The notes beneath the pieces were generated by a model, which was not told the origin of the DNA, ran no database searches, and saw only the letters and a list, made by a program, of their open reading frames with translations. A stretch of DNA of 64,000 bases from Flaccisagitta enflata (Eukaryota): NCBI GenBank assembly GCA_965153355.1, contig OZ231126.1, positions 23,994,001-24,058,000 of the forward strand, given 5' to 3'. Numbering within the stretch: the stretch's first letter is position 1; the number at the start of each line of letters is the position of its first letter. Made by a program: the position numbers and the translations under genes. Shown in pieces: positions 3,109-12,356 of the stretch.

Positions 3109-3278
3109 CTAGCTAGCATTAACGTCAAATCCCCATTTCATCAAAGTCTTCCAAACGTAACAGACGGTCTTTCGATTTTCACCACCAACTCCAAAATGGT
3201 TCCCGTGTGGAGTGGAGAATAAAGAGGGCCAGTAAGTGGAGGCAGCTTCCTTTGCTACAGGGCCAATTTCACCATCAT
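3109..3278 (-). CDS. Exon 10 (probable terminal coding exon): NDGEIGPVAKEAASTYWPSLFSTPHGNHFGVGGENRKTVCYVWKTLMKWGFDVNAS*
   Basis: Acceptor cttaaatcacag|, phase 1, open for 55 codons to TAG. An internal donor and further exons cannot be excluded. Confidence 0.55.
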
Positions 3279-3964
3279 CTGTGATTTAAGAGGATATTGG
3301 GGATGTTCAGGGGGGGGGGGGGTGGGATTGGAAATGATTGTAGGATAAAAAGTTCGTACAGTTCGTAAAATCAAATCAAATGGGGTTTGATGTGCTAAGG
3401 AATGGAGCGGAGGTAAAGGGGGAGGTTTGGGTCGTGTGGTGACAGAACTCGACGCACGTTGGAAAATGGCGTTTGGACTTTCAATGGCCTGTAAATGGGT
3501 CTGGCCCGGATCAACCTAAGGGCTAAATGGGCTTAGCCCAGGGGCCTCGCGCTTTTAGGGGCCTCGCGCCCTGAGGGGAAGAAAGGAGAAAGGAGAAAAA
3601 ATAAGGAAAAAAAAAAAAAAAAAAAAAAAAGAGAAGAAAAGGAAAGAGAAGAAGAAGAAGAAGAAAAATAATGAAAGAAAATTCCCTTGTGTGAAAGCAT
3701 AGGTCATCAACCCCTTTGGGGCTGCTGCCCAAAAGTCGTTTCTTTTGTTTGTACCACAGCTTTGGTTGTGCTGGCATGGAGCAATACAGGATTAAAATGG
3801 CCTTTTGTAAACTATCTGCATTATCAATGGTTTCTTAATGAGGTTTGCGCATTATTCTTTTTTTGTAAAATCAAAACACTAACCAAAAGATGATGCATGG
3901 CAAAAGCCTTGATTTTAGGATGCTTGAGCTTATGCGTGTGACAGTGCATGTTATCCATTCTAAG

Positions 3965-4630
3965 CTATGCCGGATCAACATATAGGCTAAAAAAGCTATA
4001 GCTTAGGGCCCCGCGCCTCAGGGGGGCCCCGCGCCTGCAGCACCTACCCCTAGAAAAAAAAAAGAGTAAAAAAAAGAAAAAGAAAGATAGAATAAGAAAG
4101 AAAGAAAGAAAAAAATAATCGCAAAAACATTACATGGTCAGCGGTACCCGATGCCCCATAGCTAGTGTATGAGGGGAGGGCCTGATTTGGGGTCTGAGAG
4201 GCCAACTTTGGTGTCAGAAAGGTCTGATTTAGGGTCTGAAAGGCTTGATTTAGGGTCTGAGAAGCCTGTTTTTAGGCTAGGGGGGACATACATAGGCCGG
4301 AAACCGAAGAAAATTGCCCTTTGTGGAATCATAGGCCATTGGCCCCTCCGGGGCCGCTGCTCAAAAAGGAAGATGATATGCTTCACTGTAATGGTGTTGT
4401 CATATTTTGTTGTTTCATCTGTTTTAAGTTCTTTAAATATGTCAATTTTAGGCAGACAGGAAGCATGCTAGATAAAATTTTAATCGACTGGTTTGGAGTT
4501 ATTGGGTAAACGGGGGGGGGGGGAAGGCAAAGAGGGGGAGGGCTAGCAGGGTGAGCAAAGAGGGGGGGAGTGAGGGGGCCCCGCGCCCCTAGCCTAGCTT
4601 AGGGCCCCGCGCCTTGTTGATCCGGCTTAG
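3965..4630. mobile_element. Related hAT-type element nested in the previous one
   Basis: TIRs CTATGCCGGATCAACA / TGTTGATCCGGCTTAG; perfect 8-bp TSD ATTCTAAG (3957-3964, 4631-4638); GGGCCCCGCGCC subterminal repeats. Confidence 0.85.
4134..4367 (-). mobile_element. Truncated family B element inside the inner hAT element
   Basis: TGGTCAGCGGTACCC ... 21-bp repeats ... GGGGCCGCTGCTCAAAAA. Confidence 0.65.
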
Positions 4631-5382
4631 ATTCTAAGCATTTTTGTTGTATGTTACATGATTCTAAAAGCTACTTTATGATCTGTTGGTCCATCGGTTT
4701 GCCAATTCCGTCTGTTCGTCCGTCACAACTAACATGAAAGGCATTTTTTTCAATTTTTTCACACTTTTGAACATAAAAGAATACTCTGGGAGGTGGAGAC
4801 CGCTTATTCAAAGGTCATTTTGAAAATTCCAGTCTGACTGTCTGTCCGATCTTTTATGAAGATGCCAAAACATGCGACTTGGGTCTAATGACCTTGTTAT
4901 AATCATAGCAGGCTCAATCTTTGAAGTCTCTAAATAAGCACAACTTATAAGAAAATTCCTATGTTTGAAAATACTACATTTTGCTGAATGAACAATCTTA
5001 GAATTTTACATGTTTCTCTCTGTTTAGATTCGAGCCTAAGAGGACTGGCTTAGGGTCTCAGGGGGAGACAGTGTATATGGGAAAGTGCAGACAAAGATAA
5101 GGAAATAACCCCGTTTTTTACAGAAAATTGGCCCTTTGGGGCTGCTGTCAAAAAAACAATAGCCAGTACAGAGAAGATTATCTCAATAGTGGACTTGCTC
5201 TAATAGGGGGGGGATGGCTTGGCCGCTGGGGAGGGGGCCTCGCTCCCCAGTTAGCCCAGGGCCTCGCAAATGGTTGATCCGGCCCAGAAATGGGTGTGAT
5301 AAAAGGATCTAAGAGATGGTGCCCCCAATTAGTGATTCATTGGCTTTGAATACACTATCTGATTGTGGATTTCATCGCTTAC

Positions 5383-5501
5383 TTTGCTTGCATATTGCGC
5401 GAAGATTATGAATTCTTCTCCCGTTTCTGCCGTCGACGAACCAGTTTTGAACCTTCTTAGTTTCCAAATTTGAACAACCAACGGTTTTTACAGACGTTTT
5501 T
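5383..5501 (-). CDS. Exon 9: KTSVKTVGCSNLETKKVQNWFVDGRNGRRIHNLRAICKQ
   Basis: Strong acceptor tttcttttttcatttcgcag|, donor A|GTAAGC; 119 nt, phase 2 to 1; unique sequence between two transposon stacks. Confidence 0.7.
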
Positions 5502-6182
5502 CTGCGAAATGAAAAAAGAAAAAGGCCGGACACACGACCAATTAACAGTTGCTTGCGGGTGGGCAGAGGAAGTACCAAGGGTGGGCAGAAGCAATAATGC
5601 AAGTGTGCAGGTACACAGAATTCACTTTTTTGGCCGATTTAACTCCAAAATTTCGCGTTACCCACCTTTCAGCCAACAGACCAGGGGCCAGTAAAGGAAT
5701 GCCGGGCCCCTATACAATCAAAAAATCCGCCCCCCCCCCCCCCCATTCCCCTTTCTTCTTCCGATTTTCGCTCAAATGCCAGCCCGATGATACCAAATGC
5801 AGTTTTTGAAGATTTGTTTTCAGTTTCTATAAATTCATTATGAAGAACAAAATTCAAACCAGTAGAGGAGGGATTTAAGCAAATAACCAGACTGGACCTT
5901 AGAAAAAAAGTAATACTGGTTTTTTTGGTGGTTTTGCACTGTACATAGGTTGTACTGAGCTAAGATAAAAAGTTGACTGAAAAATTATTCACGCAAAGCG
6001 GTTGGTTGGGATGTTTGTAGGACATATGAAAAGTGCGAAATTTCGCCAAAATCGATCTTTTAAAAATAAAGAAGTAGATACAAAAATAGAAAATAAACTT
6101 TGTTTTTGAAGTAAAAACTTCATATCAATACTTAGCTAAGACATACTTTCATGTCATGATGTCATCTTATGATGTTCAGGTT

Positions 6183-6740
6183 GCTGGAATAGCTCATCAG
6201 ACGGATAGACAGACTGAAAGACCAACCTACATGACAAGGTGTAGAGTTGCATGTGTATGAAAATACAATTTACACGATTTCAGTTCTTATGTTCCCCTCA
6301 ACCCCTTCTACTCATCTTCTCTCTGGCTGTCAGTCTGTTTTTCTGTCTGTCTGTCTGTCTGTCTGTCTGTCTGTCTGTCTCTCTCTCTCTCTCTCTCTCT
6401 CTCTCTCTCTCTCTCTCTCTCTCTCTCTCTCTCTCTCTCTCTCTGCCTGGTCATATTTCGCCCCTGTGCTGGAATAGCTCATCAGACGGATAGACAGACT
6501 AAAAGACCAACCGACATGACAATGTGTAGAGTTGCATGTGTATAAAAATACAATTTACACAATTTCAGTTCTTATGTTCCCTCAACCCCTTCTACTCATC
6601 TTCTCTCTGTCTGTCAGTCTGTTTTTCTGTCTGTCTGGCTGTCTGTCTGCCTGTCTCTCTCTGTCTGTCTGTCTCTCTCTCTCTCTCTCTCTCTCTCTCT
6701 CTCTCTCTCTCTCTCTCTCTCTCTCTCTCTCTCTCTTTCT
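6183..6740 (+). repeat. Direct tandem duplication, unit about 285 bp, each ending in (CTGT)n(CT)n
   Basis: GCTGGAATAGCTCATCAGACGGATAGACAGACT... begins near 6183 and again near 6468. Confidence 0.85.
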
Positions 6741-11196: not shown

Positions 11197-11222
11197 CTGT
11201 CTTTTTGAACGCGGACCATGAC
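11197..11222 (-). CDS. Exon 4, 26-nt microexon: GHGPRSKRQ (R-X-K-R furin-type site)
   Basis: Acceptor cctccgtttgcag|, donor CAG|GTAAAG; phase 1 to 0 bridges exons 3 and 5 exactly. Confidence 0.7.
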
Positions 11223-11532
11223 CTGCAAACGGAGGATAACGGAGATAACGGGGATAACAATAATGACAAGGATAACAAGGATTAAAAGATTTATAACTAG
11301 GATGCCAACGATAGCAGTGTAACAAGGCCAAATATGTGACAAAATCAGTGTAGTAACTAGTAAGGATGGGAAGGGACGATATTGGCAAAATCTTCATCAT
11401 CTTCAGAAACTTTTATGCGTGATCGACAAATGAACGGTCGAACTGAGTGACTGATCGAAATACCATAGTAAGTAATCGCGTCCAATTAGGTTTGTAGTAT
11501 CGGAATCTAATTTACATGAATATTCTACTTAC

Positions 11533-11601
11533 CTCGTTGTTTGTTGATCTGTAATACCAAAAGTTTTATCTTGTCCATTCGGCGTTTGATCTCTAGCTTT
11601 T
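11533..11601 (-). CDS. Exon 3: EKLEIKRRMDKIKLLVLQINKQR (coiled-coil-like)
   Basis: Acceptor ...tctacatcacag|, consensus donor GAG|GTAAGT; 69 nt, phase 1 to 1. Confidence 0.8.
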
Positions 11602-12035
11602 CTGTGATGTAGACAGATGAGTAAGAAAATTAAGAGTAACACCCATTCTTTCGAAAGAAAATCACTCTCATAATAGCACGGGGCTCAACACTGTCGAAAA
11701 CTCTTAAGGTACAGAGGAGTTGAAATGTCATATTTTGGACGAGGTCGGATACCCGGTCATTACCAGACGGACAAACTGACCGACAGAGATGCGTTTCAAG
11801 TGGAAAGAGAAGCGTTCGTTGAACGGTCGAAAAAAATCAAATCAATTCCTCACCCTGGCTATTTCCGGGTATTCCATCTGAGAGAGAGAGAGAGAGAGAG
11901 AGAGAGAGAGAGAGAGAGAGAGAGAGAGAGAGAGAGAGAGAGAGAGAGAGAGAGAGAGAGAGAGAGATATGTTATAATGTAACAACAAATTGCCCTTGCA
12001 TCCTGGACAAAGTTGCAATTTGTCTTTTGACTAAC

Positions 12036-12159
12036 CATCATTGATGAATTGGTCCTTGATGATGGTGACAGTGACGTAATTAGCGATGCACAAAGCCAAG
12101 GCAATGAGAGCGATCATTAGTAGAAGGCCCCCGCAGCAAATTGAGCACGCGGTTGCTCC
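12036..12159 (-). CDS. Exon 2: GATACSICCGGLLLMIALIALALCIANYVTVTIIKDQFIND (Cys cluster plus transmembrane signal anchor)
   Basis: Acceptor aaattcag|, donor G|GTTAGT; 124 nt, phase 0 to 1; clear hydrophobic helix. Confidence 0.8.
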
Positions 12160-12335
12160 CTGAATTTTTCGATGGGGGAGTAAGGGGAAATCCAGCAAAG
12201 GAGTTTTTAGTTTATGGCAGTCGCTAAAGCAGGAGAAAATCAATGTCGTCCAACCAACTGACCAACCAATCGACCGACCAACCTAACAAGCGACTGATAT
12301 TCGATATTTGGGTTTTGAGAAATTTTCACTCTTAC

Positions 12336-12356
12336 CTGATTTTTCGATGGTCGCAT
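12336..12356 (-). CDS. Exon 1 (coding part) of predicted type II membrane protein gene: MRPSKNQ
   Basis: ATG with A at -3 and an in-frame upstream TAA; donor CAG|GTAAGA, phase 0, matching exon 2. Confidence 0.7.

Follow-up and report, generated by a model that had tools for sequence, protein, structure and literature searches.

An expressed eleven-exon gene for a putative convertase-shed type II membrane protein of a small undescribed family in a marine eukaryote

A window of 64,000 nucleotides from Flaccisagitta enflata (the whole stretch of DNA analysed here, numbered from its first letter) carries on its minus strand a gene that is genuine, spliced and transcribed in the sea. The corrected coding sequence has 11 exons and 921 nt and encodes 306 amino acids. 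We consider it reasonably probable, on the whole of the evidence, that this genuine and expressed gene of a marine eukaryote encodes a single-pass type II glycoprotein which is shed by a convertase and belongs to an undescribed small family; a type II proprotein released by a proprotein convertase is the best reading of the sequence. Its short exons are scattered across 9 kb rich in repeats; the gene is invisible to ORF scans and was found by eye, then confirmed by ocean metatranscriptomes. With it comes a protein family, conserved and expressed, for which no relative is detectable in 1.84 billion representative proteins. Orphan type II membrane proteins as such are unsurprising, and this one is of moderate interest; if the shedding model is true, the family would represent a secreted factor peculiar to the lineage of an abundant marine eukaryote.

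Gene structure

A preliminary description of this DNA had proposed ten short minus-strand exons joining into a stop-free frame of 298 amino acids. All ten exist with the boundaries given, RNA contigs and three catalogue proteins being spliced alike, and the joined frame is open. The model was nevertheless one micro-exon short: because the segment at 11877-11854 belongs to the coding sequence, the product has 306 residues and not 298. The order of features along the protein had been read correctly, from MRPSKNQ through a Cys cluster, a hydrophobic helix, a short heptad helix, RSKR, a Ser-rich stretch and helices to a C-terminus with Cys and Trp. All exon boundaries are GT-AG (Table 1). An open frame alone is no evidence for a gene here, since 286 different GT-AG joinings that keep the ten exon sizes and both end points are equally stop-free; it is the transcripts of two marine metatranscriptomes that single out the proposed model from these alternatives.

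Table 1. Coding exons of the gene in window coordinates. Numbers in brackets are those of the preliminary model where they differ.
Feature	Position	Strand	Length (nt)	Content and support
Coding exon 1	12356-12336	(-)	21	ATG and MRPSKNQ; donor GT
Coding exon 2	12159-12036	(-)	124	CSICC Cys cluster and 25-residue hydrophobic segment with ANYV
Coding exon 3, micro-exon	11877-11854	(-)	24	AG/GT; D-GIPGNS-Q (DGIPGNSQ); without counterpart in the preliminary model
Coding exon 4 (exon 3)	11601-11533	(-)	69	Heptad-patterned short helix EKLEIKRRMDKIKLLVLQINKQR
Coding exon 5 (exon 4)	11222-11197	(-)	26	GHGP-RSKR-Q; RSKR codons 11211-11200
Coding exon 6 (exon 5)	10927-10771	(-)	157	Variable Ser-rich linker, then SALDAIEQLLAK-x-WP block (10825-10781)
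Coding exon 7 (exon 6)	10484-10437	(-)	48	Joints in RNA contigs
Coding exon 8 (exon 7)	10248-10150	(-)	99	Helical segment with KLSQIR; joints and X8 loose end at 10150
Coding exon 9 (exon 8)	9571-9508	(-)	64	X8 loose end; P0003 and P0006 collinear
Coding exon 10 (exon 9)	5501-5383	(-)	119	First half of C-terminal Cys region (C220, C248)
Coding exon 11 (exon 10)	3278-3109	(-)	170	C-terminal end, C290, conserved TL..WG.DV.A; stop TAG 3111-3109

Transcript evidence

The runs compared were two marine metatranscriptomes (X7 and X8), one DNA run (X1) and polyA RNA of the source organism (X10). Contigs of X7 and X8 were restricted to exons and together gave five exact joints and two loose ends that agree with exons 1 and 9. 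Four of the joints are 10248|10437 (two X7 contigs and one X8 contig), 10484|10771 (three X7 contigs and one X8 contig), 10927|11197 and 11222|11533 (the last two found in X7). The fifth, 11602|12036, was found in both X7 and X8 and has 23 extra letters between its sides. Exon 2 is covered by contig 14 of X7 and contig 17 of X8, both placed on 12036-12168, and the 13 loose letters of the X7 contig at 12168 correspond to 12345-12357, that is exon 1. At the other end, the 30 letters shown of the X8 loose end beyond 10150 equal 9542-9571, in exon 9. The preliminary description had made its nine junctions depend on spliced RNA, and marine metatranscriptome contigs do carry the splices listed above. 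None of these joints occurred in the DNA run X1, and the 12.2 million X10 records searched, ~6% of that run and too few for a test, held no matching read. Over its 396 nt, contig 14 of X7 differs from the window exons by four synonymous changes and one changed codon.

The micro-exon is constitutive, being present in both RNA contigs that span the site and in all three proteins of the gene's own cluster (P0003, P0005 and P0006). With tblastn its peptide was recovered at 11878-11855, all 8 residues being identical. The acceptor of this exon lies immediately after a (TC)44 tract.

Catalogue proteins extend the model over its whole length. P0003 (285 aa) and P0006 (306 aa) align in order along the 11 exons, including two junctions outside the stretch compared with RNA, and MRPSKNQ is the start of both P0006 and P0005. 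With P0006 as query, tblastn matched exon 10 at 5500-5381, where the junction codons HG|KT and CKQ|N are as in P0003, and exon 11 at 3279-3112 with 94.6% identity. The introns before these last two exons are rich in repeats and measure 4006 and 2104 nt.

Homologues and structure models

A search with phmmer, exhaustive over 1.84 billion representative proteins (E <= 0.001), recovered two clusters, the one of the query P0003 itself and that of P0004 (E 1.4e-30). By BLASTP, P0003 and P0004 share 33% identity over 282 columns (E 2e-43), and the identity of P0004 to the window protein's cluster is 33-38%. Since only two clusters exist, the evidence from conservation amounts to one deep comparison. 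The two sides of this comparison have in common a single N-terminal hydrophobic anchor, GIPGNS, the short heptad helix and a lone R-X-K/R-R site, RSKR; the SALDAIEQLLAK-x-WP block and three ectodomain cysteines are also kept in P0004. The helix of this block, in exon 6, is the most conserved part of the protein (14 of 21 positions identical to P0004), and GIPGNS, ANYV and RSKR are invariant across the five aligned proteins. In the linker after RSKR, 3 of 32 positions are identical to P0004, with an additional gap of 20 residues.

No known family was found in Pfam, by PDB sequence search, in the ESM Atlas or by fold search, an outcome that agrees with the novelty suggested in the preliminary description. 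Its statement that no collagen, TNF or olfactomedin domain is recognisable agrees with Pfam, where P0003, P0006 and P0004 gave no match to these domains at E <= 10. Runs of three or more Gly-X-Y triplets are absent from P0006 and P0004. The suggestion of a lineage-specific family likewise fits the very narrow distribution, with two clusters among the representatives. Judged from these comparisons, the proteins form a very small and hitherto undescribed family of familiar architecture.

Both AlphaFold models are of low confidence (mean pLDDT 43.6 and 44.0) and unreliable, so that no fold supports any function. At this low confidence, the AF2 model places a helix at residues 55-78, and the C-terminal region past the helices, ~100 residues, is modelled as a mixture of helix and strand. 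The coiled coil claimed at first is sustained as a heptad-patterned helix before RSKR, yet a short one, of only ~2.5 heptads.

Membrane topology and processing

The protein has one hydrophobic segment of 25 residues (residues 17-41, at 12132-12058), with a 19-residue Kyte-Doolittle maximum of 2.88 in P0006 and 2.48 in P0004; after residue 60 the profile never rises above 0.94 in either protein. Both proteins have a net charge of +2 ahead of the segment, followed by -2 and +1 after it in the two family members, a bias that favours an N-in orientation, as proposed in the preliminary description. The NxS/T sequons all lie after the segment in P0006 and P0004, at positions that differ between the two. 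So do the cysteines of P0004, except for two in the N-terminal tail, and P0006 has in addition C31 inside the segment. Hydrophobicity and charge thus suggest a type II topology, and the same charge bias would make the RSKR segment luminal.

RSKR is the sole R-X-[KR]-R motif in each homologue (residues 84-87 in P0006 and 93-96 in P0004) and occupies the same alignment column. It is invariant in all five aligned sequences among poorly conserved flanking residues, and lies inside a segment modelled without secondary structure (residues 79-119, low-confidence model). These properties uphold the furin-type site of the preliminary description, and the motif suggests that the outer part is probably cut off by a furin-type protease.

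In the mechanism that we propose, hydrophobic residues 17-41 would serve as an uncleaved signal anchor and residues 42-306 would be luminal or outside the cell, with the CSICC cluster at the cytosolic face and possibly palmitoylated. The protein may be oligomeric, its chains held together by the short membrane-proximal heptad helix and by the invariant Asn of the membrane segment. A furin-type proprotein convertase would cut after RSKR, in a disordered stretch, and release a fragment of ~219 residues composed of the variable Ser-rich linker, the amphipathic conserved helix (SALDAIEQLLAK-x-WP), further helices and the C-terminal region of ~100 residues. Three conserved cysteines are found in the latter and, three being an odd number, one may be free for an interchain link.

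Alternative readings of the protein

Instead, the hydrophobic segment could be a signal peptide, long and removed by cleavage near CIA|NY, of a soluble secreted proprotein that is then processed at RSKR, with the coiled-coil piece as its pro-region. The window protein does have small residues, C (-3) and A (-1), just before the invariant NYV, each of the five aligned sequences has ANYV unchanged, and the arrangement of one conserved RSKR ahead of a conserved block recalls the pro-domain and mature-domain layout of growth-factor or prohormone precursors. However, the hydrophobic stretch of 25 residues follows n-regions of 16 and 24 residues, and such a length belongs to a membrane span and not to the core of a signal peptide; moreover, position -3 is Asn in P0004. 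We regard a soluble precursor as unlikely.

Slightly less likely again is an unshed, resident type II membrane protein that would work in its anchored state and in which RSKR and nearby basic residues would be kept as, for example, a binding or sorting motif. It would agree with the conservation N-terminal of RSKR, where the membrane segment, GIPGNS and the heptad helix are no less conserved than most of the ectodomain and where the three variants of the gene's own cluster are invariant, and the evidence for cleavage is the motif itself. Nevertheless, a four-residue convertase consensus is retained unchanged where a poorly conserved linker begins, between proteins that are 33-38% identical, for which cleavage is the simplest explanation, and under the favoured topology this consensus would be luminal.

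A short gene of five exons, in which exon 6 is read on to ...PYIN-G-K-stop to give a small peptide precursor with a product starting with Gln and an amidated end, the downstream exons being spurious, is highly improbable: read-through of the donor at 10771 does give GK and then TAA, with AATAAA overlapping the stop, and the two last exons do sit past long repeat-rich introns, but 10771 is spliced to 10484 in four RNA contigs while none enters the intron, P0003, P0005 and P0006 all go on as PYING-VTDRTG, and P0004 is collinear to the C-terminus. This onward splicing rules out the five-exon form as the main form. It also speaks against a neuropeptide or prohormone precursor, a class marked by a cleavable signal peptide and by short conserved peptides between dibasic sites, often with a C-terminal Gly for amidation, since the apparent PYIN-GK-stop end exists only in the unspliced read-through.

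Comparison with known systems

The shed type II protein favoured here has its closest parallels in GOLM1/GP73 and GOLM2/CASC4, type II Golgi proteins that are cut by proprotein convertases. GOLM1 has a short cytosolic N-tail, a signal-anchor helix, a coiled coil near the membrane and a lone R-X-K/R-R a few dozen residues past the span, and its ectodomain is released. The short N-tail, the predicted anchor, the short heptad helix and the position of the R-X-K/R-R site are alike in our protein, whose topology and release would also correspond. Nevertheless, the likeness to GOLM1 and CASC4 comes with no Pfam match at E <= 10 and no PDB sequence match, low-complexity coiled coils being hard to relate by sequence, and the Ser-rich linker and C-terminal region with three conserved cysteines stand where GOLM1 has an acidic tail.

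With the furin-shed TNF-superfamily ligands ectodysplasin, BAFF and APRIL, the protein would share the type II orientation and a furin consensus in the stalk. It differs from them in that the TNF homology domain is not matched (Pfam, E <= 10) and the C-terminal region has only ~100 residues, its model (pLDDT 44) being too low in confidence for a fold-level comparison with that domain. Collagens XIII, XXIII and XXV and gliomedin likewise combine a type II anchor with a coiled coil next to the membrane and a site for furin-type shedding, all as predicted here, whereas our protein lacks Gly-X-Y runs and any collagen or olfactomedin domain in Pfam. Growth-factor proproteins of the pro-NGF type are cut at R-S-K-R; their signal peptide is cleavable, and the cystine-knot mature domain comes right after the site. 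The RSKR is identical, and both have in the released part an odd count of conserved cysteines that could link two chains; in contrast, ~130 residues of linker and helices separate RSKR from the cysteines in our protein, and no cystine knot was matched in Pfam.

Sequence variation

The variants of the gene's own cluster are ~94-95% identical. Set against the window product, P0006 has 15 changed residues in 306 and P0003 has 18 in 285; in both comparisons no amino-acid difference precedes residue 94, and residues 207-297 hold 10 of the 15 and 15 of the 18, respectively. Such a distribution would fit a role in mate, gamete or self/non-self recognition. In a speculative proposal, which we hold to be quite doubtful, the released fragment might represent a novel type of extracellular signal or recognition molecule, activated by a convertase, in a lineage of marine plankton; it would be dimer-linked through its odd third cysteine, with a C-terminal region evolving fast under diversifying selection. 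If shedding is true, the clustering of variation in the C-terminal part provides a concrete, testable hypothesis. Exon 10 is the most polymorphic, with 7 of the 15 differences to P0006.

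Gene structure and transcript evidence

The gene lies on the minus strand, where the ten exon sizes given in the preliminary description (897 nt, 298 aa) can be fitted from the ATG (12356) towards lower coordinates so that all boundaries are GT-AG and the frame stays open. A depth-first search recovered 286 stop-free GT-AG joinings with the identical ten sizes, start and end, many of them crossing microsatellites and dispersed repeats. The open frame was therefore a weak argument when taken alone, and external evidence was required for the gene model.

Such evidence came from catalogue proteins and from sequencing runs. 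When the translation of the fifth exon of the preliminary description (P0001) was used as query against longer proteins, a single one of 394 candidates matched: P0003, a 285-aa protein encoded on a 984-nt contig (98% identity, E 7.9e-22). It is collinear with all later exons of that description and ends at the same C-terminus. Two other proteins belong to the same cluster: P0006 is full length (306 aa) and begins with MRPSKNQ, and P0005 (168 aa) diverges at the second residue encoded by exon 8 (numbering of the final 11-exon model) and reaches a stop shortly after, presumably through a one-base frameshift in an A run.

In the run search, the DNA run X1 of organism A, the source organism, contained 0.86 of the sampled words. 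The corresponding share was 0.05–0.24 in several marine metagenomes, and 0.08 and 0.07 in the marine metatranscriptomes X7 and X8, respectively; raw reads of X10, a polyA RNA run of organism A, were also found. Runs were aligned over positions 9690-12700. The depth of X7 and X8 was confined to exon-containing bins except for the last two (12518-12700), which hold a high-copy repeat, as the X1 depth shows. Spliced joints, which the preliminary description had left to be looked for in RNA, were present in X7 and X8 contigs and all end CT..AC on the plus strand, that is GT..AG on the minus strand; none of them was present in X1 over the same region. A loose end of X7 at 12168 carries 13 letters equal to 12345-12357, the start of exon 1, and the 30 letters shown of a 67-letter loose end of X8 at 10150 equal 9542-9571. 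From X10, 12.2 million records (roughly 6% of that run) were read and none aligned over 9690-12700, a result that does not count as a test. The junctions 9508/5501 and 5383/3278, located outside this region, rest on P0003 and P0006, whose residues HG-KT and CKQ-N (junction codon split A/AT) match the spliced rather than the unspliced reading.

The 23 letters found in the RNA contigs between exon 2 and the third exon of the preliminary description originate from a 24-nt micro-exon (11877-11854) encoding DGIPGNSQ, whose AG acceptor follows straight behind a (TC)44 tract and whose donor is GT. Because it is present in both RNA contigs spanning the site and in all three proteins of the gene's own cluster, and because GIPGNS is also invariant in the distant homologue P0004, the micro-exon is, as far as the data go, constitutive. 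Its length of 24 nt explains why the frame stayed open without it. Taken together, these results indicate that the gene is real, with 11 coding exons (921 nt, 306 aa) and ten introns, all GT-AG, of 176, 158, 252, 310, 269, 286, 188, 578, 4006 and 2104 nt. The earlier model was thus nearly exact, its ten exon sizes fitting and being found spliced in RNA and proteins, and it had missed the micro-exon. The search for paralogues, conducted by tblastn of P0006 against the window, found no second copy of the gene elsewhere in the 64 kb.

Matches of P0006 in the window (tblastn), spliced joints in RNA contigs, and conservation of protein segments (P0006 numbering)
Feature	Position	X7 contigs	X8 contigs	Identical to P0004
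tblastn match 1	12168-12010
tblastn match 2	11878-11855
tblastn match 3	11602-11531
tblastn match 4	11223-11194
tblastn match 5	10933-10769
tblastn match 6	10485-10432
tblastn match 7	10249-10151
tblastn match 8	9572-9507
tblastn match 9	5500-5381
tblastn match 10	3279-3112
Joint	10248/10437	2	1
Joint (cut +1)	10483/10770	3	1
Joint	10927/11197	1	0
Joint (cut +2)	11220/11531	1	0
Joint with 23 intervening letters	11602/12036	1	1
Membrane segment including invariant A-N-Y-V	residues 17-41			12/25
Heptad helix				12/23
Block around SALDAIEQLLAK-x-WP				14/21
Ser-rich linker (20 residues deleted in P0004)	behind RSKR (84-87)			3/32

Family and conservation

A HMMER search with P0003 over all 1.84 billion representative proteins (E ≤ 0.001) was passed by two proteins, P0003 itself and P0004 (278 aa, E 1.4e-30, 38% identity), the BLASTP comparison of the pair giving 33% identity over 282 columns (E 2e-43). 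The P0004 cluster has three members, on contigs of 958–992 nt. A profile built from five sequences returned the same two clusters only (2 of 8000 scored candidates), and none of the 593 pattern matches in the metagenome contig collection was confirmed as a relative. In the alignment, GIPGNS and RSKR are invariant, and KLN..N..LS.IR, the three cysteines C220, C248 and C290 and the ending TL..WG.DV.A are conserved.

Searches for known families and folds yielded no named relative. With P0003, P0006 and P0004, Pfam at E ≤ 10 gave sub-threshold noise only (DUF948, DUF4183, AFF4_CHD, SRTM1, ATG16), and PDB sequences searched with the single protein and with the profile gave coiled-coil or designed-helix noise only. 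In the ESM Atlas, P0003 had no usable match and P0004 had one at 0.78, to an unnamed cluster and under the lead level. The AlphaFold2 models were of low confidence (mean pLDDT 43.6 over the full length, and 44.0 when the C-terminal 117 residues were modelled). When the whole-protein model was compared with about 48,000 PDB representatives, the best Z was 6.7 and the C-terminal region was barely covered; the matches were generic helical hairpins (residues 6-81 or 112-174), under the tool's own meaningful level for helices. A full-text literature search, made by the conserved 11-residue motif alone, did not find this motif. Since the searched libraries yielded no named relative and the motif is absent from the literature search, the family appears undescribed. 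Orphan membrane proteins are frequent in marine eukaryotes.

Predicted topology and processing

Close to the N-terminus, every family member carries a single strongly hydrophobic segment, 25 residues long, with Kyte-Doolittle 19-residue maxima of 2.88 and 2.48 and no later value above 0.94. Both proteins have a net charge of +2 ahead of this segment, and over the 15 residues that follow it the values are -2 and +1; under the positive-inside rule, which is established, this distribution favours an N-terminus in the cytosol. The N-glycosylation sequons are all located behind the segment, at positions that are not conserved. RSKR is the sole R-X-[KR]-R in either protein and falls within a stretch (79-119) that is unstructured in the low-confidence AlphaFold2 model. 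In the helix ahead of it (modelled at 55-78), Ile, Met and Val recur in a 4-3 rhythm over a short distance, judged by eye to cover about 2.5 heptads. By a crude heptad score this helix stands out in P0004; in P0006 residues 147-176 do so instead.

From these features we infer topology, cutting, release and any oligomer, and we consider it rather likely that the protein is a type II membrane proprotein, anchored in the secretory pathway and cut by a furin-type convertase after RSKR, with release of a fragment of about 219 residues. The anchor would keep the protein in the secretory pathway, a furin-type convertase would cleave behind RSKR, and the fragment set free would carry the conserved helix and the cysteine-containing end. 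An unlikely alternative is a soluble proprotein in which the hydrophobic segment serves as a cleaved signal peptide; by its length, the segment suits a membrane span more than the core of a signal peptide. Slightly less likely still, the protein could remain anchored, with RSKR kept for another purpose. The strongest single argument for cleavage is that a four-residue convertase consensus is exactly kept at the very point where the poorly conserved linker starts. It is hardly credible that the main product is a short peptide, a precursor suspected, with the downstream exons thought spurious, because the first five exons of the preliminary description bear strong splice sites and reading through the fifth donor gives ...PYIN-G-K-stop with an overlapping AATAAA: this five-exon form was rejected on the evidence of the spliced contigs and the catalogue proteins.

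Concerning oligomerisation of the proposed type II protein, two features are leads to chain pairing rather than evidence of it: the ectodomain has an odd number of cysteines, and an Asn of the membrane segment is invariant. A complex prediction with three copies of residues 45-306 scored 0.00 ('no answer'), which speaks neither for nor against an oligomer.

Type II proteins shed by convertases include GOLM1/GP73, the furin-shed TNF ligands, the membrane collagens and gliomedin. The architecture of the studied protein resembles that of the GOLM1/GP73 class, although homology to GOLM1 was not detected in our searches, and that of the furin-shed TNF ligands, although Pfam did not find their defining TNF domain. 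It also resembles the membrane collagens and gliomedin, but has neither a collagen nor an olfactomedin domain in the Pfam search and no Gly-X-Y runs, so that the defining domains not recognised initially were not found by these tests either. If the inference holds, the protein behaves as a member of the convertase-shed type II class without belonging to its families.

Variation among close sequences

The window protein and P0006 disagree at 15 of 306 residues, and for P0003 the figure is 18 of 285. In neither comparison does a difference fall before residue 94; residues 207-297 contain 10 of the 15 and 15 of the 18 differences, respectively. This concentration of amino-acid variation in the C-terminal region is a lead for testing. 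The exon differences of X7 contig 14 (396 nt) consist of four synonymous changes and one changed codon. X1 holds two forms of 10797-10946, at depths of 81.1 and 85.5, one equal to the window sequence and the other with 7 differences in 150 nt, located in the linker; five of the seven variant letters are also seen in contigs of the marine metatranscriptomes, four of them in X7 and one in X8. The two forms suggest very high heterozygosity or a pooled sample.

Repeats and neighbouring sequence

The last bases of exon 1 with the donor G (CCATCGAAAAATCAGG, 12335-12350 on the minus strand) are repeated with one extra T at 12160-12176, where the 176-nt intron 1 ends and exon 2 directly follows. When the region was shuffled 2000 times, the alignment score was reached only once. 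Because of this repeat, the read aligner ran 9 nt into intron 1. Intron birth by tandem duplication would be expected to leave such a pattern, with a duplicated AGG on either side of the intron.

High-copy dispersed repeats occupy 12215-12315 and 12518-12700, just upstream of or inside the first intron region, with summed X1 contig depths of 7,986 and up to 325,194 versus about 100–190 in unique sequence. They match no Rfam family, and X7 shows some RNA depth across 12518-12700. Microsatellites adjoin acceptors and give pyrimidine tracts, with (TC)44 preceding the micro-exon and (CT)n preceding exon 9, and a (TTG)42 tract at 2964-3091, (CAA)n on the gene strand, starts 18 nt past the stop codon, which would place it in the 3' UTR.

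Within the 4-kb intron 9, on the opposite strand, a 96-codon open frame of normal composition (6893-7180) ends at a GT and has no Pfam match; it might represent part of a different gene, as one of its exons, or a mobile-element remnant. Rfam and tRNA scans of the window found no RNA genes. About 950 nt upstream of the ATG, also on the opposite strand, an open frame at 13290-13410 matches the DnaJ J-domain (PF00226, E 5.5e-10, 39.6 bits for a cut-off of 27.8); of the 146 open frames scanned in the window, no other exceeded a Pfam cut-off. This frame probably represents an exon of a neighbouring gene in divergent orientation.
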